A program made the position numbers and the translations under genes. Below the pieces are notes generated by a model. That model had not been told where the DNA came from and ran no database searches. It saw only the letters and a program-made list of their open reading frames with translations. This document shows, piece after piece, positions 12,840-54,826 of a stretch of 64,000 bases of DNA. The DNA is from an uncultured Poribacteria bacterium (GTDB lineage Bacteria > Poribacteria > WGA-4E > WGA-3G). The stretch covers positions 1,352,439 through 1,416,438 of the forward strand of contig OX639992.1 in the NCBI GenBank assembly GCA_951828515.1, read 5' to 3'. Position 1 is the first letter of the stretch. Each line of letters starts with the position of its first letter.

Positions 12840-12864
12840 GTCTTTAACTTGAACCTCCTGGGCA

Positions 12865-13683: not shown

Positions 13684-14018
13684 TTCGTTTGTCCTCATCA
13701 GGTGCGGCAAAACAGTCTCTCAACCACTTTGCGTCGGTTTTGTGGGGTTGCGATAAGAGTATACACCAAAGAATGAAAAAAGTCACGCTTTTTTCATCTA
13801 CGTTTCGGTTTGGAAACCCAAGTCTTTAGACTTGGGAGGAAAAACCGCCCTCGTGTGTGAGACCATAGCGTTTTTTTCAAAAACACTTGACATTTTTCGT
13901 AAATTGTGGTTTAATAGATGTATCACGTTGGAAACCGACATGTGAAGCACAACCGCTTGGTTGTGTGTCGGTTTCCTACCCACTTCACAGGGGTTAAAGA
14001 CGTGATACGTGAAATCCA

Positions 14019-29067: not shown

Positions 29068-29082
29068 AATATTCCTTGCACT

Positions 29083-31113
29083 CTACAGATAAGGTGTGAG
29101 ATCCCAGAGGTAGATCGCGCCGTCGTGTCCACCGCTTGCGAGAAGATTTCCGTCCTGAGAGAATGTAAAACACTGGACATCGGTAGTGTGCCCCCAGAAA
29201 GTGGTAATTTTTTCACCAGTCGCTACCTCCCACAAACAGATGGATACCTTTTTTAATCCACCTTTCCACCAAGCACCGGAAACCAAATACTCTCCGCACG
29301 GCGAAAAATGTAATGTAATAGATCTCTGGTTTTCCTCTAATTGTGGAATCGTCATAACGATTTTTCCGTCTGTTGCGTCCCACAAGACTATCTCGTTCCA
29401 CAGTCCACCAGCGATAATATCACCGTTTGGTGAAAACGCTATCCCGGTGTCAGACTCTCGATACGCTCCGCCTCTTGGTGGCGGATTTAAAGGAAGTTCA
29501 GCAATCTGTCTTCCCGTATCAACATCCCACAAACAGGCTTTCCAATCCCTTGACCTTGATATACTCGCAAGTCGTTCCCCATCTGGGCTAAACCTCAATC
29601 CAGTCGGGCTAAACCTCAATCCGTAAATAAATTCTTCATCGTTAATGACAGTAGGGTGCTTTTTCCAATCTTCGCTTTCCGTTACATTATTTAAGGTTGA
29701 TGGACGCTCCCAGATATGTATGTTGTCGTTCCTATCCGCGCTTGCGATCCGGTGTCCGGTAGGTGAAAACGCTTTTGCGCGACCTAAGCCTCCTTCCGGT
29801 CCTGGGAGTTTAGCAACAGGTTCGCTCTTGTCCACCTCCCACACGTTTAAGTTATCTCCATATACATTGACAGAAATAATTTTCCCGTCAGGCGCGCGAT
29901 AAACGTTACACGAGGTCCCGGGCAATTGCTCAACTTGTGGCCGGTATGAACGTCGACTCGCGACATCCCATAAAAGGACGTTATCACGCCAAAACCCAGC
30001 AGCAAGCGTCTTTTCGTCAGAGGAAAAGACCAATGTATCCATTGTAGGGATATGTCCATGAAGGGTTGAAAGGTTGTGAGTGTCGGTGTTACTACCCTTC
30101 GCCCAGATTTGGATCTCACTTTCGCTGGCAACTGCCAATCGTGCGCCACTCTCTGAAAAACATACATTTCTACTGTTCCCACGGTGTTCAAATTCGTCCA
30201 GTTTCTCATCCGTTTCTACATTCCAGATCTCAAGTTTGCGTTGAGAAACAGCAGCGGTCACCAGTTCACCTTCTGGAAGGAAGTATGGATACATCTGGGA
30301 TTCCCCATATTCTGAATGCGTCATCTCCAGTTGTCCACTTGTCACATCCCAGACATGTATTGTGCCGTGCCGACTACCGGCGGCAAGGAACCGCCCGCAC
30401 GGAGAAAAACAGAACCTTCTCACCCGCTCGGAATATCCCGTGATGTCGGCAACTTGTTTACCAGTTTCTACTTGCCAAACGGTAATCGAATCGCCGTCAC
30501 CGATATTCATACCCCTATTGCTACTGCTTTCGTCGCTGTTCTTACCCGCCAACAGGCTTAAATCCGGAGAAAAGCAAAGAGGATAGACATCGTAGGGATG
30601 CCGTATTTCCGTTTCTCTTACCTTCGTGCCAGTGTGTGGACACCAAACATGAATCTTCCTGTTTTTCATGCGGTAATTGGCAGCAACGAGGTGTTGTCCA
30701 TCTTCGGAAAAAACAGGTTGACAAATTCCTTGATTATCCAATCTTGACATCTGTGCTATGCAAATACCACTTTGAATGTCCCATATCTTTACCTCTTCAA
30801 CACAGGTGTCTGTGACAATCCGACGATTATCAGGTGAAAATGTGACAGAGTCAGTCATCCCACGTTCCGTGTCCCAAAGTGCAATCGGAGACAACGCAGG
30901 AAGTTCATATAACCAGAGACCTATTGATGTGCCGACTGCGAAGTACTGTTCGTCCGGTGAGAACGCCATGTCACGAATGCTGCCCTGTCCCAATCGGGCG
31001 ATTGCGCCTTCGGGGAGTGCCCAAGTCGTTACATCCTCACCCTCTACACTACGTGGTGCTGGGGCAAAAGAATTTCTATTTTCCATCAAAAACCTCCTGC
31101 AAGGTACTCGCAA
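29083..31113 (-). CDS. WD40 repeat protein (676 aa), tandem paralog
   Basis: Same N-terminal motif. The 5' about 60 nt of the coding sequence are nearly identical to the downstream paralog. Confidence 0.85.
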   Translation of the reverse strand: MRVPCRRFLMENRNSFAPAPRSVEGEDVTTWALPEGAIARLGQGSIRDMAFSPDEQYFAVGTSIGLWLYELPALSPIALWDTERGMTDSVTFSPDNRRIVTDTCVEEVKIWDIQSGICIAQMSRLDNQGICQPVFSEDGQHLVAANYRMKNRKIHVWCPHTGTKVRETEIRHPYDVYPLCFSPDLSLLAGKNSDESSSNRGMNIGDGDSITVWQVETGKQVADITGYSERVRRFCFSPCGRFLAAGSRHGTIHVWDVTSGQLEMTHSEYGESQMYPYFLPEGELVTAAVSQRKLEIWNVETDEKLDEFEHRGNSRNVCFSESGARLAVASESEIQIWAKGSNTDTHNLSTLHGHIPTMDTLVFSSDEKTLAAGFWRDNVLLWDVASRRSYRPQVEQLPGTSCNVYRAPDGKIISVNVYGDNLNVWEVDKSEPVAKLPGPEGGLGRAKAFSPTGHRIASADRNDNIHIWERPSTLNNVTESEDWKKHPTVINDEEFIYGLRFSPTGLRFSPDGERLASISRSRDWKACLWDVDTGRQIAELPLNPPPRGGAYRESDTGIAFSPNGDIIAGGLWNEIVLWDATDGKIVMTIPQLEENQRSITLHFSPCGEYLVSGAWWKGGLKKVSICLWEVATGEKITTFWGHTTDVQCFTFSQDGNLLASGGHDGAIYLWDLTPYL

Positions 31114-33329: not shown

Positions 33330-34271
33330 ATGAAGATTAAAACCGGAATTATCGGTTCAGGGGGGATGGCACGCCACCATCTCACACGATTCGCTTCAAT
33401 TCCAGATGCCGAAGTCGTGGCGATCGTCTCCAGAAACGAACAGACAGGCACCCAACTCGCCAAAGAACACGAGACGGTCTTTATGCCTGAATGGGAGCGT
33501 CTGGTTGCGCGCGAAGATATAGACGGGGTCGTTATCTGCACGCATAACGACAGTCACGGTGAAATGGTGCTTGCGGCGTTGCAAGCGGATAAACATGTGT
33601 TTGTGGAATATCCACTCGCCAGTGATGTCGGTGAAGGAGAAGCGGCACTTCAGCTTGCTGAAAAGCGGGGTCGTGTCCTTCGGGTGTCGCATCCAGAGGC
33701 GGTTTCTAACACCCACAAAGCACTCAAGGACAAAATAGGTGAATTCGGGGATCTATTGCTCACCTCTTTTGTCCGTCTCACACCCGGTCGCGGTGCGCGT
33801 CCTGAAATTCTCTTCAATCTGCCGGTGTCGGGAACCCCTGCACACTTTTTCATCTACCATATCTATCCGATTGTGGATTTCTTCGGTGGTGCTGCGTCCG
33901 TTAAGAAAAATGCCGTCTACGAAGGATTAAAGGAGAACGGACAGTACGACGGGTTTGTTAATACACTCATTGTTGAATTCAAACGCGGCGGCATCGGACA
34001 GTGGACCTGGGCAGGTGGCATCGCGATTAACGCTGCCGAAGAACACGAGCGATACGTTCTCACCGACGGCACAATTAGTGATGCGGGTGGCGAGTGGCAT
34101 TGCACAACACCTTCCGGCGTGACACCACTCCTTATACCGGATTCACCGCAACTGACGCTTCAGGAACTGTGGTTCTCCGAGATCCGAGATGCTGCCGATC
34201 AACCACCATGTTTAGACGACGCTACGGTCGCGCTGGAAGCAATCCGTATCAGTCTTGGGTTTGAAGAATAA
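33330..34271 (+). CDS. Gfo/Idh/MocA family oxidoreductase
   Basis: IKTGIIGSGGMARHH Rossmann N-terminus and the VFVEYPLA motif. It starts 4 nt after the isomerase, consistent with an operon. Confidence 0.8.
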   Translation: MKIKTGIIGSGGMARHHLTRFASIPDAEVVAIVSRNEQTGTQLAKEHETVFMPEWERLVAREDIDGVVICTHNDSHGEMVLAALQADKHVFVEYPLASDVGEGEAALQLAEKRGRVLRVSHPEAVSNTHKALKDKIGEFGDLLLTSFVRLTPGRGARPEILFNLPVSGTPAHFFIYHIYPIVDFFGGAASVKKNAVYEGLKENGQYDGFVNTLIVEFKRGGIGQWTWAGGIAINAAEEHERYVLTDGTISDAGGEWHCTTPSGVTPLLIPDSPQLTLQELWFSEIRDAADQPPCLDDATVALEAIRISLGFEE

Positions 34272-34602
34272 GTGTAGGATGGTGAAGATTTTCTGTCTCC
34301 AGAGGTTCAATTGAAAGTCTGCATCCGAATGCGTTAAGAATGGTTCTAAGCGTGTCAATCGTTAAAGCCTTGTCGCTTGATAGTTCTTCCGAGAGTACCT
34401 CCGGCTCAGTGTTAATTCTCTTGGCAAGTGCTGATACACCCCCCTCCGCCTCGGCAACGGTTTGGAGTGCCAATAGGACTACTCGCAGATCTCCAAAAGC
34501 TTGGTATTCTTCCATAATTGCTTGGAGATAGCCCTTTATCCGTTCCGGATCGGAAGCGAGGCGTTGAACCATGTATTCTCGCCATGTACCCGAATTTCTC
34601 AT
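34249..34602 (-). CDS. Addiction-module antidote protein (HigA-like, TIGR02684-type)
   Basis: Immediately downstream of the killer with a 4-nt overlap. ...YLQAIMEEYQAFGDLRVVLLALQTVAEAEGGVSALAKRIN... is typical of this antidote family. Confidence 0.65.
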   Translation of the reverse strand: MRNSGTWREYMVQRLASDPERIKGYLQAIMEEYQAFGDLRVVLLALQTVAEAEGGVSALAKRINTEPEVLSEELSSDKALTIDTLRTILNAFGCRLSIEPLETENLHHPTLILQTQD

Positions 34603-34946
34603 CGTTGTGCCTCCTTATATTCTCGCCAATAGTTTTTTGCCCGTGCAATATCTTGTGCCTGTGACGATTTGGCACCTCCACAAAGTAGAAGAACAATCAT
34701 GTTATCTACCTCACCAAAATAAATACGGTAGCCTGGACCGAAGTGGAAACGTAGTTCAAAGACCCCACCGCTACCGCGAATAGGTTCACAATCGCCAAAA
34801 TTGCCTCCGCTTTCAATAGATTCAATTCGTGCAAGAATTCGGTCTTGTGTCCGTTGATCTCGGATGGATTCAACCCATTCGGTGAAAGGTTCGCTGCCGT
34901 TTGGAGTTCGGTAGCGTTGTATTTCTCGCGGATATGCCTCACGCAT
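34599..34946 (-). CDS. Addiction-module killer protein (RelE/HigB-like, TIGR02683-type)
   Basis: ...FTEWVESIRDQRTQDRILARIESIESGGNFGDCEPIRGSGGVFELRFHFGPGYRIYF... Confidence 0.7.
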   Translation of the reverse strand: MREAYPREIQRYRTPNGSEPFTEWVESIRDQRTQDRILARIESIESGGNFGDCEPIRGSGGVFELRFHFGPGYRIYFGEVDNMIVLLLCGGAKSSQAQDIARAKNYWREYKEAQR

Positions 34947-35871: not shown

Positions 35872-36225
35872 ATTTTTCTCTTCCCTGAGCGAGGTTCACT
35901 CTCCGTTTGACGCTAAAGCCCGTCGGAAATCCTCTGGACTTTCTGCTAAGATTGCGGCGCGATGCAACTGCCTAAGGCGTTGGGGGTCCTCAAATGTTAC
36001 GTTTTTATAACATTTTTAAATTGGCATTTCTGTGGGCGTTTCGGTTGAGAATCCACGGGTAGCGTGGGTTTCTTGAGTGTTTCTCCTGTGGCAACTCTCT
36101 GTTAAAAAAAATAATTTGGTGAAAAGTGTAACATTTTTCATTTTTTCGTCTGAATCGTGGATTATCTCGGATTACACCGATGACGCGGATTTTTGGGATT
36201 CTTCCCGTCAAGCCTATGGGTCCAT

Positions 36226-37446
36226 CTAAAAGAAATCGCTTTCTTGAAGAGATTCTGCTGCAAATATTGTCAAGCATAATTCTTCGTTGAAAAGTTCATA
36301 GATAGGTATTTTTCCGCTCAAGTGTTCACTTTCGTTTAGAATGATGCCGACACCTTCCCCACGTCCTTCTAAAAAGTGTCTCCGCTTTACTTGACTTCCT
36401 ACATCGTCATCTAAAGTAATTTCCGACAGTAAACGTGCTAAGAGTTCATTACGCGTGGCTTGGCTATAACGTAATTTATCAATTGTTACAGTATTTGCTA
36501 ATGCCCCTGGGGAATATAACTCAAGCCGGTCAGCAAACATGAACAGCCGTATTTTTGAGCCGTATTTTGAATAATCTCTATGCACAACTGCGTTAACAAC
36601 TGCCTCGAATACAGCGCGCAGACTGTATTGGGGTTGGTCTATCCTGCCAATTTCCTTACGCGCTGATACCTTGTTGTGTTTTTGAACAAATTTAAAGGCA
36701 TCTACAATCTGTTGGTCAAGTGGTCCCCTAAAATCTTTTGCATCTATCTGGTAGTTGGCATCTTTTTTTTTACCACTATAGTAAACGGCTTGAATAAAAC
36801 TGTTATATAGGTAATCATCAGGTGTGTCGTAACACATCAAAACACCAGCTACAGAAGCCCGAGTTTCACGCCCCTCTCTAACGAGTAAACTTCTTTTCAG
36901 GAGTAGGTCTTCTATATCATCTTCAGAGGCATCTTCTGTGATGAATCGTTGATAGAGGTGTTCTCTTAATGTGCCCTTATATGTATTAGGGACGAACTGT
37001 TCATTAAATGCAATAATCCTTGCTTGGGAACGGCTCTGTAATATCCGCGCTAATTGCTCAGTAGACATCTCCCTTTTGCTGCTCCCCTGTCTTGTGAAAT
37101 AACCGTTAGACGTTTTGTGTACAAAAAGGCTCCTCGGCACCTCTATTTTCAGTAAGTTTTTGTCATCAATCCGTAATTTCTCTGTGAAAGTGGGAACGGT
37201 GGGTTCAATGCTGTCATTGCATATTTCAACAACCGTTTTTTCTACACTATCCAATTTCTGCAGTTCAATTCCGACGATTTCTCTATCGTCGTCAATACCG
37301 ATGAGTATCATCCCGCCTTGGGTGTTCGCAAATGCTGCGATCTCGTCAGCAAGACTATTTTTGTGAGGCATCTCCCTTTTGAATTCAATCGTTGAGTCTT
37401 CACCAAGCATAATTTTTTCAAGAAGTTCGGTTAGACTGTAATACAT
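36226..37446 (-). CDS. AlbA_2 (Schlafen-like putative DNA-binding) + HATPase_c_4 (RecG-C-terminal-like) domain protein
   Basis: N-terminal EDSTIEFKRE...LADEIAAFANTQGGMILIGIDDD (AlbA_2 hallmark) and C-terminal VVHRDYSKYGSKIRLFMFADRLELYSPG (HATPase_c_4 hallmark). ATG lies 2 nt after the stop of the upstream PHP-ATPase gene. Confidence 0.8.
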   Translation of the reverse strand: MYYSLTELLEKIMLGEDSTIEFKREMPHKNSLADEIAAFANTQGGMILIGIDDDREIVGIELQKLDSVEKTVVEICNDSIEPTVPTFTEKLRIDDKNLLKIEVPRSLFVHKTSNGYFTRQGSSKREMSTEQLARILQSRSQARIIAFNEQFVPNTYKGTLREHLYQRFITEDASEDDIEDLLLKRSLLVREGRETRASVAGVLMCYDTPDDYLYNSFIQAVYYSGKKKDANYQIDAKDFRGPLDQQIVDAFKFVQKHNKVSARKEIGRIDQPQYSLRAVFEAVVNAVVHRDYSKYGSKIRLFMFADRLELYSPGALANTVTIDKLRYSQATRNELLARLLSEITLDDDVGSQVKRRHFLEGRGEGVGIILNESEHLSGKIPIYELFNEELCLTIFAAESLQESDFF

Positions 37447-37448
37447 GA

Positions 37449-40082
37449 CTAATCTCCGAGATGAATACGCCTATAGCGTTGTTCAAACGCTTTTTCTCCG
37501 CCCTCAAGAATGTTGCATATAGATTTCCTAACTTTCTTTTGCTGTATACTTGCAGGATGTTGCACATAAGTTTGGCCTTCCACTACCTCAAGCGGTAAAA
37601 CCAATTCTGCATCACCGTTAACCACAATATTGGCATTGTGCGTCACAACAATAACCTGCCGTTTACTTTTTGTTTTTCGCAACTGTTTGACAATCAAGTC
37701 GTAAATTAACTCGTTGTCCAAATCGTCTTCGGGTTGGTCTAACAAGAGTGGTTCGTCTCCATAGAATAGGATGAATGCCAATAGTGCAGCTGCTCTCTCA
37801 CCAGGTGAGCCTATTTCTATCGGCTTACGATTGGCATCCAAGGTGATTTTCAACTTATCCTCGGGAAACCATAAGATGAGATTGATTATAGATTCTGGTG
37901 ACAACGATTGTAAACGAGTAGCGAACGATTTATGTTTGGCAGTCTTCTCTCCATTGCGAATACCTTCAAGTGTTTCTTTGAGTTTTTCAATTTTCTCGTC
38001 TCCACTGTTGCGATAAATCTTTTTTAAGTTTTTAAAATCCGAGGCAAAACGATCCTGACATTGCAGTATATTCCGAATCTCTTTCTCTATGCTATCCCAC
38101 TTTCCGCCAAAAGGCTGGACTTCAATGCTGACAAATTGACTGTCTTTTAGAACAGAAGCCAGAAATTTTTGCCGATTTTCTGAGAGTATTCTCCGATTCT
38201 CTTTAATTTCCATAAACACTCTCTGTTTTTCACCCTCTAAGTTATGCAAATCCGCCTTATGTTCACTAATTAAATCTAACTCTCTTTTTAAGTTCCTTTG
38301 TTGTGTCAATAGCAAAGGATATCTATCGGGGTCTATATTTTGCTGTTCAAGTTCGGAACGCAATTGCTCATACTGTGCCATATCTGTCTTGAGTGCTTGC
38401 ATCCAGTCTGCCGTATTTTTTTCAGTTTGCCACTCGGCGATAACCGAATTCGCCTTTTGTACCACTTCGCTTAACTGGTCATGGATAGACTGCCATTTCT
38501 CATTTGTTGTTTCTAAAGTCGACAAAATATCTGTGTGTTTGCTAAAATGCTGCGTATTAAAATCCGCCGGAGCAATAGAGTCTTGTGTCTCCAAAATCCG
38601 ACCGCGCAGCTCTTCCCATTTACGCTCCAAACTTTCAAGTTCGTTTAACTGCTGCCGCCGCCCGCGGTAATTTTGCAGCACTTCTTTATGCCCTGATTTT
38701 TCGATCTGCGCAATCTGTCTTGCGAGATCGTTGAACTCCCCGCACAGTTTGCTCTCCTCAGCGATTTTATCATTCAACTCTCGTCGTTTACTCTCAATTT
38801 GCTTGTATCGGTTTTCCAAGTCCCTTTTCTGTGTCTTAAGCTTAGCGGCATCAACTTTAGGTGCTTCATCAATAATCCTAATCAGGGCACTTGGCTTCTT
38901 AGCTAATTCAAAAATCTGCTTTTGACTATAAATACGGACCGGTAAAAGTGATTTAATCTCTCCATCAAAAGATTCCCAAGTGCCATCATCTTTTTCTACT
39001 TCCAAAGAGGAACAATCCTGAGTGAAGGACCAGTTCAAACGGTATCGCACTTCACCTTTGCGGTAGATTAACGATATTTTACTGTCCTCAATCAGTAGGT
39101 TAGTATCCCCTACTTCAAAGTATTTACGACTATCTCTAACTAACGGATCAGGAATGTCTTTATCGCGCCGAAGAGCCAAGCGCATGAACTCCAATAGTGT
39201 TGACTTGCCGCGTCCACGTCCACCAATTATGGTGTTGAGAAAGGGACTAAATCGGCAATTTAGTGGCTCAGAACGTCCAATGTATTTTGCTTTATCAACT
39301 TCTATACTTTGTATAAAGTAGTCGGGGGGATCGTTGGGGGTGTCGTTCATGTTGCGGTTTACAGATACATCACCGTCCTGTAGTGCAAGTTTTAGTCCTT
39401 CAATAGAAGGTTCATCCATTTTGACCCAAGTAAATGTGCCAAATGTCTCTTTACTGAAATCGTGTACATCAGAACCCCTAATTTCAGTCCACTGTAACTT
39501 TTCGTCTATATATAATTGGGGTTTTTGATAATTACTGTCCCATAACTCCATCGCGTCAATATTTTCATTTTCCAATATCTGTTGTAGTGTTAATCCGGTA
39601 AGTTTAAACAAACCCCTTATTTTATCAGCATGTGCGGGTATAGGAATGCCACCTCGTTCTGCGATTTCATCAACGACTTCAGTAATGCTTTTAATTGTTA
39701 CATCATCGCTATCTCCTTTCGTTCCTTTATAATCAACAGCATCAAGTAAATTATCAATACCACTCTTATTCTTGTTACGTCCAAATATCGCTAATATATG
39801 TACACCACCGTTTGCTGAAATTTCCACGCCCGGGAAGAGATATAAAGGCCGGTACCAGTGAGGTTGGTTTGCTTGTAGTTTTATCAATTCTTGCTGCAGA
39901 ATACCTATCCAACCGCCACTGTTATGGTCAGTAATTGCTACACAGTCAATTTCCTTTTCCATGAATGCCCTTAACCAATCTTCAGCACCCAATTTTTTAT
40001 CATTGAAGTCTACCGAGGCGGGTGTGTGGGTATGAAAATCAACTTTCCACCACCGTGCCCCCGGAAATTGTAACTCATTCAT
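37449..40082 (-). CDS. PHP-domain phosphoesterase fused to an SMC/Rad50/OLD-like ABC ATPase with a long coiled coil (877 aa from the first ATG)
   Basis: PHP metal ligands WWKVDFHTHTP, AITDHNS, GVEIS, HILAIFG, PAHAD, GSDVHD. Walker A GGRGRGKST, about 300 aa of coiled coil, signature-like IGSPGERAAAL, Walker B/D-loop LLLDQPEDDLD and H-loop VIVVTHN. The first ATG at 40082 has a GAGGT Shine-Dalgarno sequence. Confidence 0.8.
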   Translation of the reverse strand: MNELQFPGARWWKVDFHTHTPASVDFNDKKLGAEDWLRAFMEKEIDCVAITDHNSGGWIGILQQELIKLQANQPHWYRPLYLFPGVEISANGGVHILAIFGRNKNKSGIDNLLDAVDYKGTKGDSDDVTIKSITEVVDEIAERGGIPIPAHADKIRGLFKLTGLTLQQILENENIDAMELWDSNYQKPQLYIDEKLQWTEIRGSDVHDFSKETFGTFTWVKMDEPSIEGLKLALQDGDVSVNRNMNDTPNDPPDYFIQSIEVDKAKYIGRSEPLNCRFSPFLNTIIGGRGRGKSTLLEFMRLALRRDKDIPDPLVRDSRKYFEVGDTNLLIEDSKISLIYRKGEVRYRLNWSFTQDCSSLEVEKDDGTWESFDGEIKSLLPVRIYSQKQIFELAKKPSALIRIIDEAPKVDAAKLKTQKRDLENRYKQIESKRRELNDKIAEESKLCGEFNDLARQIAQIEKSGHKEVLQNYRGRRQQLNELESLERKWEELRGRILETQDSIAPADFNTQHFSKHTDILSTLETTNEKWQSIHDQLSEVVQKANSVIAEWQTEKNTADWMQALKTDMAQYEQLRSELEQQNIDPDRYPLLLTQQRNLKRELDLISEHKADLHNLEGEKQRVFMEIKENRRILSENRQKFLASVLKDSQFVSIEVQPFGGKWDSIEKEIRNILQCQDRFASDFKNLKKIYRNSGDEKIEKLKETLEGIRNGEKTAKHKSFATRLQSLSPESIINLILWFPEDKLKITLDANRKPIEIGSPGERAAALLAFILFYGDEPLLLDQPEDDLDNELIYDLIVKQLRKTKSKRQVIVVTHNANIVVNGDAELVLPLEVVEGQTYVQHPASIQQKKVRKSICNILEGGEKAFEQRYRRIHLGD

Positions 40083-41185
40083 AACAGATACCTCGTAATT
40101 TATGGATACGCACAAGTATGTTGACTATTATACTCAAAATTAGATGTTGTTAACAATTTCTTAATATATCAATCAATAGTATACCGTTATCGCAGTTAGG
40201 TTTCAACAAATTTTATGCAATTCGCGTGGTGAGGATATCAGTCATCTTACCGCTATCGGGGTCTTGTAACGTGTGGGAGATAGATGACCGGTCTGTGGTG
40301 GCAGGAATCTTGGGTTCCAGAACAGAAGAATCTTCACTTGTTTGTCCTGCGCGAGTATCCGAACAAGATGCTGATATAAGTCGTGAGGTGAATAGTTCGC
40401 TTGCGGAAGTGGAGATGAACGAATCGAGATGTGGTTTTGATATCCGTGTATCTTCTGCGTAGCATTTGCACTGGATGGCGCAGTATCCGCCATCGCGTTC
40501 TTGTAAATTCTATTAAATAACCCAAGTGGCTATGTTAAAAAGTTATAGATATTCAAGTACAATTTATATTGGACAATGAGAGATGTTTCAACGATACACA
40601 TGTCGCCCCTTTGGGACTTTAGACTTGGGGTGATCGCGTTTCTACACACATACCGCCCCGCTGGGGCTTGGAGCAAACGACTCGCGATTTTCTATACCCA
40701 ATTGCTGAAGGAAACCCGAAAAAACCCAAAATGTAATGAAAATAATCACACTTATTTGAAAGTGGTAACTTGGGTTAAATAAATTTGCTTTTCCAAGTTA
40801 AATATGTTATCATATATAATGTAAATTTGAATTAGTATTCAGGCATAAAAAAAACAAAGGAAATGTTACACTTCCGTCGAATTATTTTTTTCGCGACAGA
40901 ACATCCGTCCTGAAAACGGCTCGGAACCCAGACGGCACCTACGGTGAAAATACTGATCGCTGCACCTGCAATGTTACACTGGTGTAACATTTTAAGGCAT
41001 CAACAGCGCAATAAATTGCGCTACTACGAACCAAGTTGAATGCCCTCTTTCTGTTGAATGCCCTCTTTCTATAGACATAGCACTCCGCTGGCGTGCGGAA
41101 AAAGTTTGAAAAATCGTATTCAAACTATGGAATTGATTCGTAGCAACTTGGGTTAGAATATTACACTTTACCAAGGTAACGTTTC

Positions 41186-42102: not shown

Positions 42103-45100
42103 TTGCACTTAAACAGCATCAAAATTCGTGGATTTAAGAGTTTCGCCGAAGAAATTGAGCTCATACTTGAACCCGGCATCACTACTATTGTCGGACCCAA
42201 CGGTTGTGGAAAAAGCAACGTTTCCGATGCAATTCGATGGGTGCTGGGGGAACAGAGTGCTCGCTCGCTCCGATGTACCTCTATGCGTGATCTACTTTTC
42301 AACGGTGGTGCTAATTTCGCGCCCGCGCAGAAAACAGAGGTAGCCCTGTGCTTTTCAAATGGAAATCCTGATGCCCACCCACAAGATGCTCCTGAACTTG
42401 CCTTGGCATCTCCAGGAGTTGAGGTGTCTCGCCACCTCGGTCGCAACGGTGAAAGCCGCTATCTGATTAATCAGAGCCCGTGTCGTCTCCGAGACATCAG
42501 CGAACTCTTTATGGACACAGGTATCGGCGTAGATGCTTACTCGGTTATGGAACAGAGTAAGATTGATTTGATCCTGAACGTCCGCCCCGAAGAACGTCGG
42601 TTTCTCTTCGATGAGGTTGCCGGCATCACCAAGTATAAACATCGTAAGAAAACAGCACTCCGTAAACTTGAACAGACCGAACAAAACCTCGCCCGTATCA
42701 ACGATGTGATTCAGGAGTTACAGCGCGAAACTGAGTCCCTCAAGGAACAAGCAGAACAGGCACATCACTATAATACACAACAAGCGCGGTTAAAGCAGCT
42801 TGAGTTAGAACTCGCGCACCGAGAATATGATAAACTCCGTACAGATTATAACCAAGCCCAAGCCGACCTGGATGAGGTCTTAGCCACTGTCGCGAATGCT
42901 TCTGAAACCCTTAAAATCGCTGAAGAACGCATTGAGAACTCCACAAACCGCCGATCTGAGTTGGATGAAGCGATACGTGAAGGACAAACAGCACTTCGCG
43001 AGATTGAATCACAAATTGAGCAAATCGAACGTCAGATAGTGCTCCACAAGGAACGCCAACTCAACATCCAACGGGAGCGGGAACGGGCACTCCAAACGCT
43101 TGAATCCTTAAAATCACAACAAACCGGCATACTGACACAGCAGCGGGAGCGAAATCAAGAATATCAGAAACTTGAGGCATCCTGCAAGATAGAAGGGAGC
43201 CGATTGGCAGCACGTCAGCAACTTCTAACAGAACTCGCTGAACGGATCAGCGGCGCCAAAGATGCTGTACAAGAAACACAAATTGCCTTACAAGAGATTA
43301 CAACGGAGTTGACAGAACGCGAACGCGAACGCTTGGCGATCGAGCATACGTTGACAAGTTCCGAAGGGAATCTCAACCGCCTGAAAAAAAATAAGACAGC
43401 GTTAACCGCTGAACTCAGCACTGCCAACGATACTCGCGATGAAGTCCAGTATGCTGAAACACAATTGAAGGCAACACTCGTTCACATCGAAACTGAGAAA
43501 AACCAGGCAGAAATAGACCTCAGCGAGAGTCAAGATGCGCTCCGTAAGATTGAAGCCGAAATCCGAGACTTACAAAACACCTTAGGTGCCAATGTCTCAC
43601 GGTTCAAATCATTACAGGAATTGCAATCTGCGTATGAAGGATACTATGCCGGTGTTCGGGCGATAATGCAGGTGAAAACCCACTACCCCGACCAGTTTCA
43701 AGGCGTGTGTGGTGTCGTTGCCGAACTTGTCACAACGGGTACCGAGTATGAAGTTGCAATAGAGGTCGCTCTCGGGAGTGCTATCCAGAATGTCATTACT
43801 GAAACCGCTGAGGATGCACAAAGGGGTATCGCTTTTCTTAAACAGCATCGCGCAGGTAGGGTAACGTTCCTCCCTCTGGATATTTTACGTGGACGTAGAT
43901 TTGAGGCTAAGGAATTGTTGGACCAACCCGGTGTTATCGGAATCGCTGAGGAATTGATCGATTACGACCCGAAATACGAGACTGCGATGCGACATCTACT
44001 GGGCAATACGCTCGTTATTGAAGATTTGGATTCAGCAATCGCCCTGACCCGTCAGTTCCGTTCAAGTGCCCGCCTCGTCACGTTAGACGGCGAAGTCATT
44101 AATACATCTGGTGCCATCACTGGTGGTCAAACAGGTCAGAAGCAGATCGGGTTGCTCAGTCGTGCCCGGGAACTTGAGACGCTTGAGGACGAGATTGGGA
44201 AGTTGACCCAAAACTCGAATAAGAAGGATCAGAAGCGTAAGGCGTACGCCGCAGCAATAGCGAATCTGCAAAAAACGCGGCAGACGCTCACTGCACAGTG
44301 GCAGGATAAACGGGTTGAAAAAGCGTCATTGACGAAAGACTTAGAGCAGGCAAATCTCCAGGTTATCCGGCTCGAACAACAACTCACTACGGTTGCGGCA
44401 GAAAACCGCGAATTGGACACCGCAGTAGCGGCATCGCGCGAAGAACAACAGGCACTTGAAACTGAAATCCAGGCGTTGACGCAAAAGAAGACTCGTACCC
44501 AACGATGGATTGAACGAATGTCCGAGCAGATTGAAAGCGAAAACCGGAAACACACTGAAGTCGCGAGCAGTTGTCAGGAGATGGAAGTTTTCTTGGCAGG
44601 CCAGCGTCAGAAACTTGAGGGTTTAGCGTCCGAAATCCAAACGTTCAAGGAAACACAAGCGCGAATAGAAAAGGATATCGCTGAACAACAAGCAATCATT
44701 GACACAGATGAACAGAGAAAAAGCGACCTCGTGGAGCAGGTAGCCGCGGCGCAACGCGAGTTCCTCCGTTTAGAAGGGGATCGCGCCGTAGCCGAATCAC
44801 GCGTTGATGAGTTGACCGAAGAACGTGAGACACTCCTTCAGGAGGTAGAGGTCCTCCAAAAGGAGATGCGTGCAACCCGTAGAACCTTTGAGAGACAGAA
44901 CCGTACGCGTCATAAACTCGAAGTCGCCACAACACAATTTGAGATGCGCATAAAATCGGTCTCAACCCGTATCCACGATAAATATCAGGTTTCGATTGAT
45001 TCCCTACCACCGATAACGGATAACGAACAAGCGATGGATGAGATTGATCTGTTGGATAGCATTGAGAAGTTGAAAGCGGAACTCTCTGGAATGGGTGCAG

Positions 45101-45687
45101 TAAACCTCAAGGCGATTGAGACTTATGAGGAATATAAGAAACGCTACGATTTCCTTATTTCCCAGCGCGCTGATCTTGAACAGTCGACGCAAGACACTTA
45201 TCAGGCGATACAGAAAATTAACCAGACATCAAGAGAAGTGTTTCTTAAGACGTTTGAAGAGGTGCAGACGAACTTCCAAGAGGTTTTTACACAACTCTTT
45301 GGCGGCGGCGAAACCGAATTGCTATTGACGGATCCGTCCGACGTGCTCGATTCGGGCATTGACATTATTGCTCGTCCGCCAGGTAAACGTCCACAGAGCA
45401 TCACGCAGCTTTCTGGTGGAGAACGTTCGTTGGTGGCGATTGGACTTCTGTTTGCTGTCTTCAAAATCAAGCCGAGTCCTTTCTGTGTGCTCGATGAAGT
45501 CGATGCCGCGCTCGACGAAGCAAATGTCCTCCGCTTCACCAATCTGATCCGTGCTTATGCCGAGAATACGCAGTTTGTCATCATCACGCACAACCGTCGC
45601 ACGATGGAAATTGCCGATGCCATGTACGGTGTGACGATGGAACAGGCGGGTATCTCGAAAATTGTCTCTGCTAAGTTTGCGGAATAG
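42103..45687 (+). CDS. smc: Chromosome segregation protein SMC
   Basis: 1194 aa. Walker A GPNGCGKSNV, long coiled coils, hinge (...GVCGVVAELV...), C-terminal LSGGERSLVAIGLLFA and Walker B FCVLDEVDAALD. Confidence 0.95.
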   Translation: MHLNSIKIRGFKSFAEEIELILEPGITTIVGPNGCGKSNVSDAIRWVLGEQSARSLRCTSMRDLLFNGGANFAPAQKTEVALCFSNGNPDAHPQDAPELALASPGVEVSRHLGRNGESRYLINQSPCRLRDISELFMDTGIGVDAYSVMEQSKIDLILNVRPEERRFLFDEVAGITKYKHRKKTALRKLEQTEQNLARINDVIQELQRETESLKEQAEQAHHYNTQQARLKQLELELAHREYDKLRTDYNQAQADLDEVLATVANASETLKIAEERIENSTNRRSELDEAIREGQTALREIESQIEQIERQIVLHKERQLNIQRERERALQTLESLKSQQTGILTQQRERNQEYQKLEASCKIEGSRLAARQQLLTELAERISGAKDAVQETQIALQEITTELTERERERLAIEHTLTSSEGNLNRLKKNKTALTAELSTANDTRDEVQYAETQLKATLVHIETEKNQAEIDLSESQDALRKIEAEIRDLQNTLGANVSRFKSLQELQSAYEGYYAGVRAIMQVKTHYPDQFQGVCGVVAELVTTGTEYEVAIEVALGSAIQNVITETAEDAQRGIAFLKQHRAGRVTFLPLDILRGRRFEAKELLDQPGVIGIAEELIDYDPKYETAMRHLLGNTLVIEDLDSAIALTRQFRSSARLVTLDGEVINTSGAITGGQTGQKQIGLLSRARELETLEDEIGKLTQNSNKKDQKRKAYAAAIANLQKTRQTLTAQWQDKRVEKASLTKDLEQANLQVIRLEQQLTTVAAENRELDTAVAASREEQQALETEIQALTQKKTRTQRWIERMSEQIESENRKHTEVASSCQEMEVFLAGQRQKLEGLASEIQTFKETQARIEKDIAEQQAIIDTDEQRKSDLVEQVAAAQREFLRLEGDRAVAESRVDELTEERETLLQEVEVLQKEMRATRRTFERQNRTRHKLEVATTQFEMRIKSVSTRIHDKYQVSIDSLPPITDNEQAMDEIDLLDSIEKLKAELSGMGAVNLKAIETYEEYKKRYDFLISQRADLEQSTQDTYQAIQKINQTSREVFLKTFEEVQTNFQEVFTQLFGGGETELLLTDPSDVLDSGIDIIARPPGKRPQSITQLSGGERSLVAIGLLFAVFKIKPSPFCVLDEVDAALDEANVLRFTNLIRAYAENTQFVIITHNRRTMEIADAMYGVTMEQAGISKIVSAKFAE

Positions 45688-47253: not shown

Positions 47254-47981
47254 TTCAACTTAACCCCGAGCTTTTTGGCAACCTCCTCAAGTGGAATTAA
47301 TTCAGCTGTCCCGGCTTCAACCTCTGCAACGCTCCGTTCCAACCTTTCAGCCACCTCCGGACGCAATTCTAATCCCTCATCTGGATCATAGTGGTAATCC
47401 TCAAGAAACTGCTCTAACTCCAGGTAGGACACAAAAAATTCAAAGAATGCTGATTTCAGTTGTTCTGTCCCTTCAACCGATGGTAACGTCTTCTGCAGTT
47501 TAACAATTTTTTCACGTGCTGCAAAAAGTTCCCAATTCGCGAGCGTCTCCATCAGTCTACGGAACACATCATCCGGTAATTCCCTCACTTCAATCTCGGG
47601 TTCGGGATCAGTGATTAAGGGCAGATCACTCATCCGTTTTGCTATACGTCCTGCGGACGAAGTTTTTCGCACAGCTTCCACGGCTGCGACGCGCTCCTGC
47701 AGAGGTGCGAACGTATCACGCGTCTGTAGTATTGAGAGCAGCTGCGCTTCCGGTTCTTCTAACTCAAATGCCAAACCACAGTAGCCTTCATAAAACTCAC
47801 GGAACTCAGTATCCAACACGTCTCTATCAGCATTCTCAGCAAGCAAGGCAACGAGTCGTTCACGAGATTCAAAGAGCGAACAGTCGATAATTGGTGTGAG
47901 CCAGACACTGAATGCTGCGTGAGTCATGTCTGTTATGTCGCGTTTCACTGGATTCTCCTTATGATTAACCGACAGATGCAA
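47241..47981 (-). CDS. 246-aa acidic protein translationally coupled between recG and the RelE/ParE toxin; putative non-canonical antitoxin
   Basis: Overlaps the recG stop by 17 nt and the toxin start by 13 nt. The C-terminus ...ERSVAEVEAGTAELIPLEEVAKKLGVKL is antitoxin-like; the N-terminal roughly 200 aa are of unknown function. Confidence 0.45.
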   Translation of the reverse strand: MHLSVNHKENPVKRDITDMTHAAFSVWLTPIIDCSLFESRERLVALLAENADRDVLDTEFREFYEGYCGLAFELEEPEAQLLSILQTRDTFAPLQERVAAVEAVRKTSSAGRIAKRMSDLPLITDPEPEIEVRELPDDVFRRLMETLANWELFAAREKIVKLQKTLPSVEGTEQLKSAFFEFFVSYLELEQFLEDYHYDPDEGLELRPEVAERLERSVAEVEAGTAELIPLEEVAKKLGVKLKCTR

Positions 47982-50802
47982 TCTCTAAGTTGTCTCGCCA
48001 ATGTTCCTGTAACATCCGCTTCAACAACTGATGCATAGGTGCGCTCAGTATTGGATCGGCTTTGATGAGCGACTCTGCCTCTTTTTTCGCCACTTCCAGA
48101 AGTGTAGCATCGTGAATGATGTTTGCAATCTTGAAGTTTGGGATGCCCGATTGGCGTGTGCCGAAAAACTCGCCCGGACCTCGGATATTCAAGTCTGCTT
48201 CGGCAATCCGAAAGCCGTTGTTCGTCCGAATCATCGCTTGAATGCGTTGAAAAGAGTCGTCACCTTTGGGTAAAGCGACAAGGTAACACGTCGATTGATG
48301 TTCACCCCGTCCAACACGTCCACGCAATTGATGCAATTGCGACAACCCAAACCGTTCGGCATTCTCAATCACCATTAGCGTCGCGTTTGGCACATCAATA
48401 CCCACCTCAATGACCGTTGTTGAGACCAGAATATCGATATGTCGATCCTTGAAGTTTGTCATCACTTCCTGTTTCTCAATGGATTTCATTTGTCCATGCA
48501 GAAGTCCGAGACGCAGATCGGGGAATACCTCACCCTGAAGATGCGATGCCATCTCTGTGGCGGCTTTGAGTTCTTCGAGTTTTTCGGACTCCTCAACGAG
48601 CGGGTAGACGATGTATGCCTGTCTACCGCGTTGAATCTCCTTCCGAACAGTGCTGTATAATTTCTCCCGCTCCTTCTCCTTTATCCAATAGGTCTTAATC
48701 GTCTGTCTACCCGGAGGCATCTCATCGATAACAGAGACGTTCAGATCGCCATAGAGCGTCAATGCGAGTGTTCTTGGAATCGGGGTCGCAGTCATGACGA
48801 GTACGTCTGGTGCTGGTGGGGCTACGGCACCTTGCTTTTGCGTCGCATTTGCCGATTGTGCTTTATTACGGAGCGTTGCGCGTTGCATCACACCGAACCG
48901 GTGCTGCTCGTCGATGATAACGAGTCCAAGTTTGTGAAAATCGACACCTTCCTGTATCAACGCCTGTGTCCCAACGATAAGGTCTGCGGTGCCATCGGCG
49001 ATTGCCGCCAGTGCCTCTTCGCGCTCTGGTTTTGGTAGGTCGCTTTTGAGAAGCACAACGTTTATGTTTTCGTCATCGGTTTGTGCGGCATCCTTGCGTA
49101 AATCCTTGAGCATCTCTGAGAGATTATAATAGTGCTGCTCGGCGAGAATTTCAGTAGGCACCATCAGCGCGCCTTGGTACCCGTTTTCGATAGCACAGAG
49201 CAACGCCATCGCTGCGACAACCGTCTTTCCGGAACCGACATCTCCTTGAATGAGTCTATTCATAACGGTTTTCTGCTGCATATCGTTTTGGATTTCAGCG
49301 AACACGCGTTTTTGTGCCCCTGTGAGTTCATAAGGCAGCGACGCAAGAAAACTGCGTAACACGGAAGGAGACGTTTCAGATTTCCGTTCTGTTCCAACCT
49401 GAAACGCGATACCATCCTCAGAGATACGATGTTCTTTTTTCATCTCCATCCCGACACTGAGAAGAAAAAACTCCTCAAAAGCGAGCCGTTTTTGCGCGGC
49501 TTCCCGATGTGCCTCCGATGTCGGAAAATGTATCTCGTTAATGGCGGACTGTCTATCCACCAAGCGTTGCCGTTGACGAAGTGCGAGTGGCAAGATCTCA
49601 GGTATCTGTTGTCCATACTCGTCCAACGCCGTCCGCATCCAAGCACGCAGCATCTTCGCTGTGAGTTTTGCTGTTAGCGGATATTTGGGAACGATCCGAT
49701 TTGTGTGAATTAGGTTTTCTTCCTCACACAGTTCAAATTCATAGTCAGTGGCTTGGATCTCATTGTAACGGCGTGAGAACTTGCCGCTGACGACCACCTC
49801 AGTGTCAACGGGAAGTAGTGCTTTCATAATACCGATGCGTCTGCCAAAGTTAACAAGCAAAGCTACACCCGTCCCGTCATAAATTGAGATCTTACCGATA
49901 CGTTTCCCTTTCGCTGTCGGAGACGAAGTGTGATTAACGACCTTGCCTTGTATAGTTTCTGGCTCGTCATCTCCTGCCCTTCCGACCCTATAAATCTCTA
50001 CCATTTTGGAGCGGTCGATGTAGTCGCGCGGGTAGTATGCCAGCAATTCACCAACCGTTTGGATACTGAGTTCTTCCGAAAGCATTTCGGCGCGACGCGG
50101 ACCAATTCCTTTGAGATACTGGAGGGGTTGGGTTAGGAAATCAAGCGAGTCGCTGTCTGTTGAAACGGGGGTATCTGAGATTGGAACGGACTCTGAGTGG
50201 CGGTCAGCAGTCGGCAGTCGGCGGTCGGCGGGACCGCTGCCGGCTATTTCTTGCTGATCGCTAATTGGCTGAGGACTCTTTTGTTGTGACGGAGGGTCTG
50301 TGTCTTGGAAAAGAGGTAAATCTTTCGTTGTCACCGTAGCGGCTGGACGTTCCGATGCCTGCCCCCGCTCTGGGGGTGAATTTTCGGGGTTACTTTCTAC
50401 TTCTGCAAAAAGAGACAGCATATCCGTTTGGGCACTTTTCTTGGAACTTCTACGTTGCGCCTTTGGCTGCTGACGTATTTGCGACGATTCGGTATCTGTC
50501 CGGACTGTATCCGAGACGTTTCGTTGTCCGTGTCCGAGTGCGGCATCAATTCGTTTTGTCGCATCCTCAAGTATGCGTTGGCGTTCGGTGGACGACGCAT
50601 CGGCGTAATTTTCAAAGAGGTTCGACAAACCGCTTAGTACCTCTTTTTCAGCTGCCGCCAATGTGAAGGTTTCTCCATTCTTTACCCATAACTGGACATA
50701 GTTTCCCAATCCGTCAACGGCAACATCGTCGCGGCACCTGTTTCGGAGTTCTTGTTGAAAGGGACGGCGGATAGTAGTAAGGATTTTTGTGAAATTATTC
50801 AT
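47965..50802 (-). CDS. recG: ATP-dependent DNA helicase RecG with a roughly 240-aa N-terminal extension
   Basis: The canonical core starts at ...LQYLKGIGPRRAEMLSEELSIQTVGELLAYYPRDY, with helicase motifs GDVGSGKT, DEQHRFG, TATPIPRT and QLRGRVGRG. The N-terminal extension is Ser/Pro/Gln-rich. Confidence 0.9.
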   Translation of the reverse strand: MNNFTKILTTIRRPFQQELRNRCRDDVAVDGLGNYVQLWVKNGETFTLAAAEKEVLSGLSNLFENYADASSTERQRILEDATKRIDAALGHGQRNVSDTVRTDTESSQIRQQPKAQRRSSKKSAQTDMLSLFAEVESNPENSPPERGQASERPAATVTTKDLPLFQDTDPPSQQKSPQPISDQQEIAGSGPADRRLPTADRHSESVPISDTPVSTDSDSLDFLTQPLQYLKGIGPRRAEMLSEELSIQTVGELLAYYPRDYIDRSKMVEIYRVGRAGDDEPETIQGKVVNHTSSPTAKGKRIGKISIYDGTGVALLVNFGRRIGIMKALLPVDTEVVVSGKFSRRYNEIQATDYEFELCEEENLIHTNRIVPKYPLTAKLTAKMLRAWMRTALDEYGQQIPEILPLALRQRQRLVDRQSAINEIHFPTSEAHREAAQKRLAFEEFFLLSVGMEMKKEHRISEDGIAFQVGTERKSETSPSVLRSFLASLPYELTGAQKRVFAEIQNDMQQKTVMNRLIQGDVGSGKTVVAAMALLCAIENGYQGALMVPTEILAEQHYYNLSEMLKDLRKDAAQTDDENINVVLLKSDLPKPEREEALAAIADGTADLIVGTQALIQEGVDFHKLGLVIIDEQHRFGVMQRATLRNKAQSANATQKQGAVAPPAPDVLVMTATPIPRTLALTLYGDLNVSVIDEMPPGRQTIKTYWIKEKEREKLYSTVRKEIQRGRQAYIVYPLVEESEKLEELKAATEMASHLQGEVFPDLRLGLLHGQMKSIEKQEVMTNFKDRHIDILVSTTVIEVGIDVPNATLMVIENAERFGLSQLHQLRGRVGRGEHQSTCYLVALPKGDDSFQRIQAMIRTNNGFRIAEADLNIRGPGEFFGTRQSGIPNFKIANIIHDATLLEVAKKEAESLIKADPILSAPMHQLLKRMLQEHWRDNLEIASVG

Positions 50803-54636: not shown

Positions 54637-54826
54637 CTCTTCTCTCCTTTTCTCGGAAGAAATTTGGTAAACGGAGTTATAGCCGAACAATCATATACTA
54701 AATCATACTATGTTTTTACGCATAAAACAAGTAGAAATCACTTATGCTACAGATTCGATGAAAACGCTGTCTGCATGCCAAAAATCTTGTAAGTAGCAAC
54801 TTGGGTTATGCTACATTAAGGCAAGT

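Follow-up and report, generated by a model that had tools for sequence, protein, structure and literature searches.

Two adjacent genes in a 64,000-nucleotide (nt) stretch of DNA from an uncultured Poribacteria bacterium (contig OX639992.1, positions 1,352,439 to 1,416,438; the whole stretch is called the window here) have their closest described relatives in three lines of published work. The first is the TRL operon (trlR-trlF-trlG) of Photorhabdus laumondii, from whose "temperature restriction locus" the name TrlF derives (Hapeshi et al. 2020, PMC7554251). In this bacterium, a temperature upshift induces the operon, spontaneous mutants able to grow at 36 C carry nearly all their mutations in trlG and never in trlF, and deletion of the whole operon gives the same relief of growth arrest as the trlG mutations (PMC7554251). 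The second is Ppl, which according to a review is a single-gene anti-phage system of E. coli and a 3'-5' exonuclease on single-stranded DNA (ssDNA); nucleoside triphosphates (NTPs) inhibit it by binding to both the PHP and the NTPase domain, the inhibition is lifted when phage depletes the nucleotides, and the enzyme detects 3'-OH ends left by phage homing endonucleases (PMC12904381). The third concerns prokaryotic Schlafens in which an AlbA_2 domain is joined to a GHKL-type ATPase. This "Schlatpase" supradomain (AlbA_2 + PF13749) is found in the SLFN-pAgo protein RzAgo, and AlbA_2+GHKL proteins of the Schlatpase type are ATP-dependent, tRNA-cleaving defence effectors (bioRxiv 10.64898/2026.05.29.728809); Slfn-HisKinase is the commonest prokaryotic Schlafen architecture (34%, plus 19% with a helix-turn-helix domain; Perez Taboada et al. 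2026), and Cash proteins are Schlafen tRNases activated by cyclic tetraadenylate (cA4) (PMC13462974). Here, we report that the two genes of the window, gene A (trlF-like) and gene B (trlG-like), correspond by sequence to a divergent TrlF-TrlG operon that was very likely acquired horizontally and that probably serves in defence against phages or other mobile DNA.

Family identity and active sites of the two genes

Gene A and gene B (Table 1) are joined by the sequence GGA GAT TAG TC ATG, in which the stop codon of the first gene is followed after 2 nt by the ATG of the second. The translational coupling of two minus-strand genes, described in an earlier account made without database searches (the sequence-only reading), was borne out. 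The same account had presented the pair as undescribed and unnamed, while tentatively offering the name TrlF. The name proved correct and the claim of novelty fell: gene A scored 583.8 bits against NCBIfam NF045780 ("TrlF family AAA-like ATPase", cut-off 350) in an end-to-end alignment (residues 19-885 versus model positions 2-944 of 944); the PADLOC Ppl model PDLC02208, for which no curated cut-off is shown, matched it at full length (E=4e-141, residues 19-884); the TRL operon was described in 2020; and on many plasmids the NCBI Prokaryotic Genome Annotation Pipeline (PGAP) places a "TrlF family AAA-like ATPase" beside an "RNA-binding domain-containing protein" or "ATP-binding protein". A PGAP-named TrlF from a Burkholderia plasmid was 34% identical to gene A over 959 aligned positions (E=4e-156) and a Pseudomonas savastanoi plasmid TrlF 26% identical, and their partners were 47.6% (E=1e-129) and 28.7% (E=2e-39) identical to gene B, respectively. 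Taken together, these comparisons identify the window pair as a divergent copy of the TrlF-TrlG operon with gene A in the Ppl family, and thus as a system of an already known kind.

With the TRL operon, the window copy shares the two-gene core, the gene order, the tight linkage and a patchy distribution that includes plasmids and is consistent with horizontal transfer. The domains of TrlG (AlbA_2 at 14-128, HATPase_c_4 at 298-365; PMC7554251) are matched by those of gene B (16-128 and 296-393). In contrast, the proteobacterial TrlF proteins are only 26-34% identical to gene A and their TrlG partners 29-48% identical to gene B, the host of the window copy belongs to a sponge-symbiont lineage, and the 79-amino-acid (aa) regulator gene trlR is neither present at the window locus nor conserved in its clade. 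No trlR-like small gene was found upstream in 40083-41185, and any one small upstream open reading frame (ORF) recurred in at most 4 of about 75 loci. In the published survey, too, trlR is conserved in few taxa only (PMC7554251).

Gene A is homologous to Ppl over its full length, through PHP domain, helical insertion and ABC NTPase alike, and the PHP ligands and the segment DQPEDDLDN are identical in a Ppl-like protein of a Yersinia phage. The curated Ppl equivalog NF042955 gave 556.3 bits against a cut-off of 1000 (residues 19-884 versus 1-882 of 882). Gene A is by this comparison a Ppl homologue, not a Ppl orthologue, and because the equivalog cut-off was not reached we infer, rather than read off, a Ppl-like mechanism for it. 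By analogy, NTPs would be expected to inhibit gene A, which would digest ssDNA as a 3'-5' exonuclease and sense 3'-OH ends. The primary reference for the Ppl mechanism is reportedly Xu et al. (Mol Cell 2026). The sequence-only reading had predicted a nucleic-acid-sensing, ATP-gated nuclease, in agreement with what the review says of this homologue (PMC12904381). Ppl stands alone in P2/P4-type hotspots, whereas gene A is translationally coupled to a Schlafen-GHKL gene.

At its longest, the ORF of gene A spans 37449-40115 from a TTG codon, which is the extent first claimed. The frame holds, but the protein likely starts at the ATG at 40082, since homologues are 873-891 aa long with MNELQ-like starts and a GAGG lies 9 nt upstream of this codon. 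The PHP region carries the complete set of metal ligands (in the motifs H17-x-H19, D52-H53-N54, E87, H95, H151 and D205-x-H207), and these are kept in 81-83 of 83 relatives, a set that takes in named TrlF proteins and one phage Ppl-like protein; there is no sign of degeneration across homologues. The ATPase motifs (G287..K293-S294, Q387, S759-x-G761, D782-Q-P-E785 and H815) were likewise conserved in at least 97% of the 83 members, so that all PHP and ATPase motifs quoted beforehand were recovered. We assigned the PHP domain from the NCBIfam CehA/McbA model (E=1.4e-13), the RNase RNM model, which matches too, and the conserved ligands. Among the Pfam models proposed for the check, AAA_23, AlbA_2 and HATPase_c_4 were found, while PHP (PF02811) did not reach E=0.01 on gene A; AAA_21 and SMC_N were the other Pfam matches of this protein.

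The coiled coil of about 300 aa foreseen in gene A corresponds to predicted helices at residues 412-737 of a low-confidence AlphaFold2 model, which was built from a 14-sequence alignment (mean predicted local distance difference test, pLDDT, 56; predicted template modelling score, pTM, 0.28) and used for secondary structure only. This insertion is the fastest-evolving part of the protein, with a mean pairwise identity of 0.35 versus 0.51-0.66 in the catalytic domains. A sequence search of the PDB with gene A returned no Ppl or TrlF structure, and the nearest solved relative was Rad50. In ABC ATPases, the residue after the Walker B aspartate is the catalytic glutamate. The Walker B of gene A reads DQPEDDLDN (residues 779-790), a glutamine follows the aspartate in 82 of 82 aligned relatives, and this Q783 aligns with the Rad50 residue next after the Walker B aspartate. 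The invariant glutamine at the catalytic position suggests that the ABC head hydrolyses slowly, in a natural "E-to-Q"-like state suited to nucleotide sensing rather than fast turnover.

A nuclease paired with an ABC head of the SMC/Rad50 type, itself interrupted by a helical insertion, is also found in PARIS (AriA/AriB), Gabija (GajA/GajB), OLD, Lamassu (LmuB), Septu (PtuA) and Mre11-Rad50/SbcCD, and in PARIS the ABC ATPase serves as the sensor for an effector that cleaves tRNA, an arrangement that the window pair may share. The PADLOC models of LmuB, AriA, GajA and PtuA matched gene A weakly (E=1e-5 to 1e-13) and through generic ATPase motifs only. The nuclease fused to gene A differs from all of these, being PHP and not Toprim, Mre11-type or HNH, and the second nuclease is a Schlafen where PARIS has the Toprim protein AriB. 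Mre11-Rad50 and SbcCD, for their part, have a separate calcineurin-type nuclease (Mre11/SbcD), a Rad50/SbcC with a zinc hook and a conserved repair context, and the Rad50 equivalog models gave gene A 16-38 bits against cut-offs of 700-1000.

For gene B, Pfam returned the two domains that had been named, SLFN_AlbA_2 at 16-128 (E=1.8e-24) and HATPase_c_4 (PF13749) at 296-393 (E=3.6e-16). The nuclease residues E16 (70/70), E21 (67/70), K23 (70/70), N41 (70/70) and D53 (69/70) are kept, as are the GHKL motifs E281, N285, D306, S312-P-G314 and R362-G-x-G365 (68-70 of 70 sequences). Moreover, each motif of the human SLFN14 nuclease site has its counterpart in an alignment with the N-terminus of gene B, and the PADLOC SLFN-type pAgo model aligns to residues 30-398. 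The nuclease site and the ATP-binding motifs are therefore intact, and gene B is predicted to be a nuclease/ATPase. It resembles other prokaryotic Schlafens in the E-x4-(E/D)-x-K motif, the SAFAN-type box, the third acidic residue and the PF13749 GHKL region with its E/N motif, and differs from them in lacking a sensor fused to it, whether Argonaute, Csx15, Ig-like or DUF262. Given that no sensor is fused to it, the separate protein TrlF is the candidate for that part. The published TrlG loss-of-function positions S16, V35, A36 and R126 can tentatively be placed in the nuclease motif, the Schlafen box and a conserved arginine; the substitutions were read on a Pseudomonas TrlG instead of the Photorhabdus sequence, so that only the earlier positions can be placed. 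A promoter-like site (TTTACA-18-TATAAT, an 11/12 match to consensus and no more than that) lies at 37885-37914 on the minus strand, inside the 3' end of trlF and about 440 nt upstream of trlG, and could allow separate expression of trlG.

Table 1. Features of the TrlF-TrlG unit in the window (positions are those of the 64,000-nt stretch)
Feature	Position	Strand	Description
Gene A (trlF-like)	37449..40082	minus	877 aa + stop; PHP fused to Rad50/SMC-like ABC NTPase, Ppl/TrlF family
PHP domain of gene A, about residues 1-265	39288..40082	minus	CehA/McbA and RNase RNM models; ligands kept
ABC NTPase head of gene A, N-terminal half, about residues 266-400	38883..39287	minus	Walker A GGRGRGKST (287-295), Q-loop Q387
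Helical (coiled-coil-like) insertion of gene A, about residues 401-745	37848..38882	minus	predicted helices 412-737
ABC NTPase head of gene A, C-terminal half, about residues 746-877	37452..37847	minus	S759-P-G761, Walker B LLLD782-Q783-P-E785, H-loop H815
Gene B (trlG-like)	36226..37446	minus	406 aa + stop; stand-alone Schlafen (AlbA_2) + GHKL ATPase, "Schlatpase"
Schlafen/AlbA_2 nuclease lobe of gene B, residues 16-128	37063..37401	minus	E16-x4-E21-x-K23, A37-A-F-A-N41 box, D53
GHKL-type ATPase region of gene B, residues 281-393	36268..36606	minus	E281/N285 N-box, D306, S312-P-G314, R362-G-x-G365
5' leader	40083..40246	minus	about 160 nt, conserved, moves with both genes

Pairing and genomic context of the relatives

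A scan of species-representative genomes yielded 80 loci with relatives of gene A (38-89% identity), many of them from sponge symbionts. The loci span one archaeon and, among bacteria, Poribacteria, Caldilineaceae, Gammaproteobacteria, Nitrospirales, Bdellovibrionales, Latescibacterota, Rhodothermales, Desulfobacterales, Myxococcales, Planctomycetota, Verrucomicrobia, Elusimicrobia and Spirochaetes. In 72 of the 80 (90%), the next gene downstream was a homologue of gene B (46-94% identity); this count includes locus L058, where gene B is split by an insertion with both pieces detected. The junction between the two genes measured -11 to +4 nt in 66 of 66 measurable loci, with -8, +2 and -1 the commonest values. 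The pairwise identities of gene A and gene B were correlated (r=0.90 over 2,211 locus pairs), and gene B was the more conserved of the two in 96% of locus pairs. When 101 gene A-containing loci were sorted by integrity, both genes were intact in 81, gene A was intact with gene B absent or broken in 9, and gene A was broken or a remnant with gene B intact in 2 (L057 and L095).

The eight loci without gene B carry other defence candidates downstream (PDC-S54, a RecD-like gene, HATPase_c_3, Hhe/PDC-S37 or BrxHI), and in one of them, L053, gene A itself is interrupted by an ORF. The PADLOC candidate PDC-S54 takes the place of the Schlafen partner after TrlF in two Poribacteria (L012, 10716-11336; L029, 10718-11947), and a RecD2-like helicase is found downstream of TrlF in L017 and L053; these genes may be alternative TrlF partners or mere island neighbours. 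Locus L074 holds a second gene B paralogue (12547-13749), 61% identical to gene B of the window and 0.7 kb past the TrlF-linked copy. Solo relatives of gene A are more distant than the paired ones. A P2-like phage of Yersinia carries one such gene, flanked by gpA and the portal gene; four more are on viral contigs; and another, which PGAP also labels TrlF family, adjoins mutS within an integrase island of E. coli.

Seen from gene B, the linkage is far looser. A metagenome scan with an alignment of gene B gave 80 loci, 73 of them with enough upstream sequence, and a TrlF-like gene stood upstream in only 20 of the 73; the other 53 had heterogeneous neighbours. When 130 gene-B-type proteins were placed on a neighbour-joining tree, TrlF linkage switched at least 19 times (mean 36.7 and minimum 29 with shuffled labels), and one pure clade comprised 36 TrlF-linked proteins, with loci of several sponge-symbiont lineages among them. 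These results indicate that gene B does not depend on gene A and that the pairing may be loose. The expectation that the two genes co-occur across genomes, therefore, held from the side of TrlF and failed from the side of the Schlafen.

The surroundings of the 80 gene A loci are variable, and we found no conserved synteny: 530 of 777 flanking ORFs (68%) were unique to their own locus. The most recurrent neighbours were type III methylases (11 loci), HKD-Snf2 (9), type ISP/IIG restriction-modification (R-M) enzymes (8), type III nucleases (8) and BREX PglX (7), followed by PglZ (5), BrxA (5), type II methylases (5), PurL (5) and BrxC (4), so that nine of the ten most recurrent families are defence components (R-M, BREX, HKD-Snf2). 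Among loci such as L051, L039 and L068, the flanking ORFs closest to trlFG include BREX genes (BrxA, BrxC, PglX, PglZ) in several phyla, and in other loci trlFG adjoins type III or type ISP R-M genes. Copies of trlF-trlG are also carried by conjugative plasmids. The defence reading offered earlier is in keeping with these variable, defence-rich neighbourhoods, which show no housekeeping synteny.

Possible roles of the pair

Given the homology of gene A to Ppl, the kept active sites of both proteins, their pairing, the mobility of the unit and the defence-rich context of its relatives, we consider anti-phage or anti-mobile-DNA defence to be the probable role of the operon. TrlF would then act as an NTP-gated exonuclease of the Ppl kind at 3'-OH ends of ssDNA, with its ABC head as a nucleotide sensor or clamp more than a motor. 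TrlG would be the growth-arresting effector, an ATP-dependent, oligomeric RNase whose cutting of tRNA leads to abortive infection; this assignment draws on the biochemistry of RzAgo, Cash and pSlfn proteins and on the fact that only trlG mutations relieve the arrest in Photorhabdus. In a complex of the two, TrlF bound to phage DNA ends, or a fall in the nucleotide pool, would license TrlG.

Several observations weigh against this reading. Our literature search found no paper that tests or names the TrlF-TrlG pair as a defence system, and none that ties TRL or TrlG to Schlafens or phage defence; the only experiment on the pair concerns temperature-dependent growth arrest, which its authors did not read as defence (PMC7554251). 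Gene A falls under the Ppl equivalog cut-off, and its structure prediction is too poor to serve as a fold test. The insert in the window lies outside any defence island, among housekeeping neighbours apart from one toxin-antitoxin pair, and the loose linkage of gene B relatives to TrlF and the repeated switches on the gene B tree count on the same side. Finally, in single-gene tests of two systems for each of four Schlafen architectures in E. coli, protection came only from a DUF262 fusion and an Ig-like fusion, and neither of the two gene-alone Slfn-HisKinase constructs was reported protective, with one of the eight constructs having failed synthesis and the text not saying which (Perez Taboada et al. 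2026).

A functional coupling of TrlF and TrlG, as a complex or by licensing, is favoured by the invariant gene order, the tight junction and the co-divergence of the two genes, and we rate its chances as even. Its strongest competitor is that two autonomous defence genes travel on one transcript, as a two-layer stack without molecular cross-talk, which we regard as a serious but clearly less likely possibility. Such autonomy fits the single-gene action of Ppl, as given in the review (PMC12904381), the solo TrlF/Ppl-like genes of phages, viral contigs and E. coli, the 53 of 73 gene B relatives that have mixed neighbours and no TrlF, the persistence of an intact gene B behind a broken or remnant gene A in L057 and L095, and the Photorhabdus arrest, which needs TrlG and is never relieved by trlF mutation (PMC7554251). 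However, the same order and junction recur in every measurable locus across phyla, co-occurrence reaches 90% in the TrlF clade together with the co-divergence noted above, and the lack of reported protection by gene-alone Slfn-HisKinase constructs could mean that a partner is needed (Perez Taboada et al. 2026).

Two simple forms of control were considered and are disfavoured. If TrlF were required to switch TrlG on, trlF should have appeared among the Photorhabdus suppressors, since it is the larger mutational target, and it was never hit (PMC7554251). TrlF as a strict antitoxin of TrlG is at odds with the intact gene B beside a broken or remnant gene A in L057 and L095 and with the unlinked state of most gene B relatives.

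An alternative of another kind is a physiological growth-control or addiction module, which would stop growth under stress or stabilise its carrier element in the manner of a toxin-antitoxin system. In its favour, the TrlG-dependent arrest at 36 C is the only direct phenotype and an upshift induces the operon (PMC7554251), plasmid copies adjoin relaxase or mobilisation genes, and gene B is lost or disrupted more often than gene A (9 versus 2 loci), as for a costly toxic gene. We nevertheless consider this improbable: the distribution is patchy across phyla with R-M and BREX as dominant neighbours, TrlF has a proven anti-phage protein among its homologues and defence by Schlafen nucleases of the gene B type is proven as well, abortive-infection systems typically show such arrest as autoimmunity when overexpressed or under stress, and no TrlR regulator is conserved with the pair in the clade of the window. 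A housekeeping DNA-repair pair, in which an SbcCD/Mre11-Rad50-like single-chain nuclease-ATPase would work with a RecG-like helper, could draw on Rad50 as the nearest solved relative of gene A by sequence, on records that call the partner RecG or ATP-dependent DNA helicase and on the older labels "histidinol phosphatase" and "recG", but is very improbable, because gene B has AlbA_2 and GHKL domains in place of a helicase domain, a genuine RecG and an SMC protein are encoded in the same window, neighbour ORFs are mostly locus-unique, the low-GC unit is absent or relocated in related genomes, and the recG label was rejected by the Photorhabdus study (PMC7554251).

Within the defence reading that we prefer, a stronger version holds that TrlF and TrlG form one integrated immune machine, in which a Ppl-type sensor of DNA ends and nucleotides physically controls a Schlafen tRNase. 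We put this forward as a tentative proposal that is, on present evidence, less likely than not. If true, it would explain why HisKinase-type Schlafens have not been seen to protect alone, it would turn the "temperature restriction" of Photorhabdus into autoimmunity of an abortive-infection system, and it would make the pair a widespread, unnamed two-gene defence system, often inside BREX and R-M islands. The Photorhabdus operon, the Ppl nuclease and the Schlafen-GHKL effectors are three strands that appear unconnected in the searchable literature and that are joined in one conserved operon; the idea that the pair acts as one defence system was not found stated in the literature searched. Should the pair be a unit, a sensor of DNA ends and nucleotides would be added to the known partners that control Schlafen RNases, and the commonest bacterial Schlafen architecture would gain a testable activation route. 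For annotation, an "RNA-binding domain-containing protein" or "recG" that follows a TrlF/Ppl match is best read as part of a defence module.

The inserted unit and its surroundings

The operon stands out from its flanks by its low G+C content (0.38-0.43 over 36000-41000 versus 0.47-0.54), as had been noted. Leader and genes together show 83-93% nucleotide identity to loci L001, L005 and L016, and the homology stops at 40244-40246 on one side and at the gene B stop codon on the other, which delimits a transferred unit of about 4.0 kb (leader + trlF + trlG, 36226-40246). L005 and L016 share the insertion site, and their downstream flank (hydrolase, oxidoreductase and sugar-isomerase-like genes) is 87-96% identical to the window at the protein level; the L001 copy, with 83% nucleotide identity to the window module, lies in an unrelated context. 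Given the dip in G+C content and the homology that ends at the unit edges, the trlF-trlG unit was very likely acquired horizontally, as the sequence-only reading had supposed, and inserted between housekeeping genes.

Upstream of gene A, that reading had seen about 1.1 kb of non-coding DNA. Indeed, 40083-41185 holds no supported ORF, Rfam match or tRNA, but the first 160 nt or so are not featureless: they form the conserved leader, with the promoter-like sites TTGAAA-17-TATACT and TTGTTA-18-TATAAT and a palindrome, TGTTAACA. The predicted RNA fold of the leader was nothing unusual (z = -0.49). In L005 (2514-8000), the leader lies about 1.5 kb away from trlF and, compared with the window, is interrupted a further time by about 3.2 kb, which suggests that DNA has inserted repeatedly just upstream of the module.

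A second palindrome, AATGTTAC-N6-GTAACATT, occurs at 35993-36014 and 40970-40991, with half-sites at 36127-36134 and 40863-40870. Its two exact copies are the only ones in the 64-kb window (0.02 expected), and they bracket the low-GC segment. We rejected it as a part of the system, for it is found neither in L005 and L016, whose module occupies the same insertion site, nor in other loci. The motif AACTTGGGTTA is present in three copies within 640 nt (40518-41179) and once more at 54798; allowing one mismatch at most, there are 6 matches versus 0.9 expected. An exact 18-nt tandem duplication, GTTGAATGCCCTCTTTCT, lies at 41035-41070, in the DNA that has no supported ORF, Rfam match or tRNA.

The neighbours of the insert in the window comprise an SMC protein (42103-45687), RecG, a ComF-like protein, WD40 proteins and a HIT protein. 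The genuine RecG is encoded on the minus strand at 47965-50802, 8 kb away, with RecG_wedge, DEAD/Helicase_C and RecG_dom3_C domains; since it is encoded nearby, together with the SMC protein, gene B is not the recG of this genome. The minus strand also encodes a Gp49/HigB-like toxin (34599-34946), whose gene shares 4 nt with that of an HI1420-type antidote (34249-34602). This pair (34249-34946) is not present in the otherwise syntenic L005 and L016, which marks it as a second small insertion, independent of trlFG and about 1.3 kb away from it. Elsewhere in the window, a DDE transposase is encoded at 23268-24167, and two large WD40 beta-propeller proteins, which are eukaryote-like repeat proteins, at 26791-31113.

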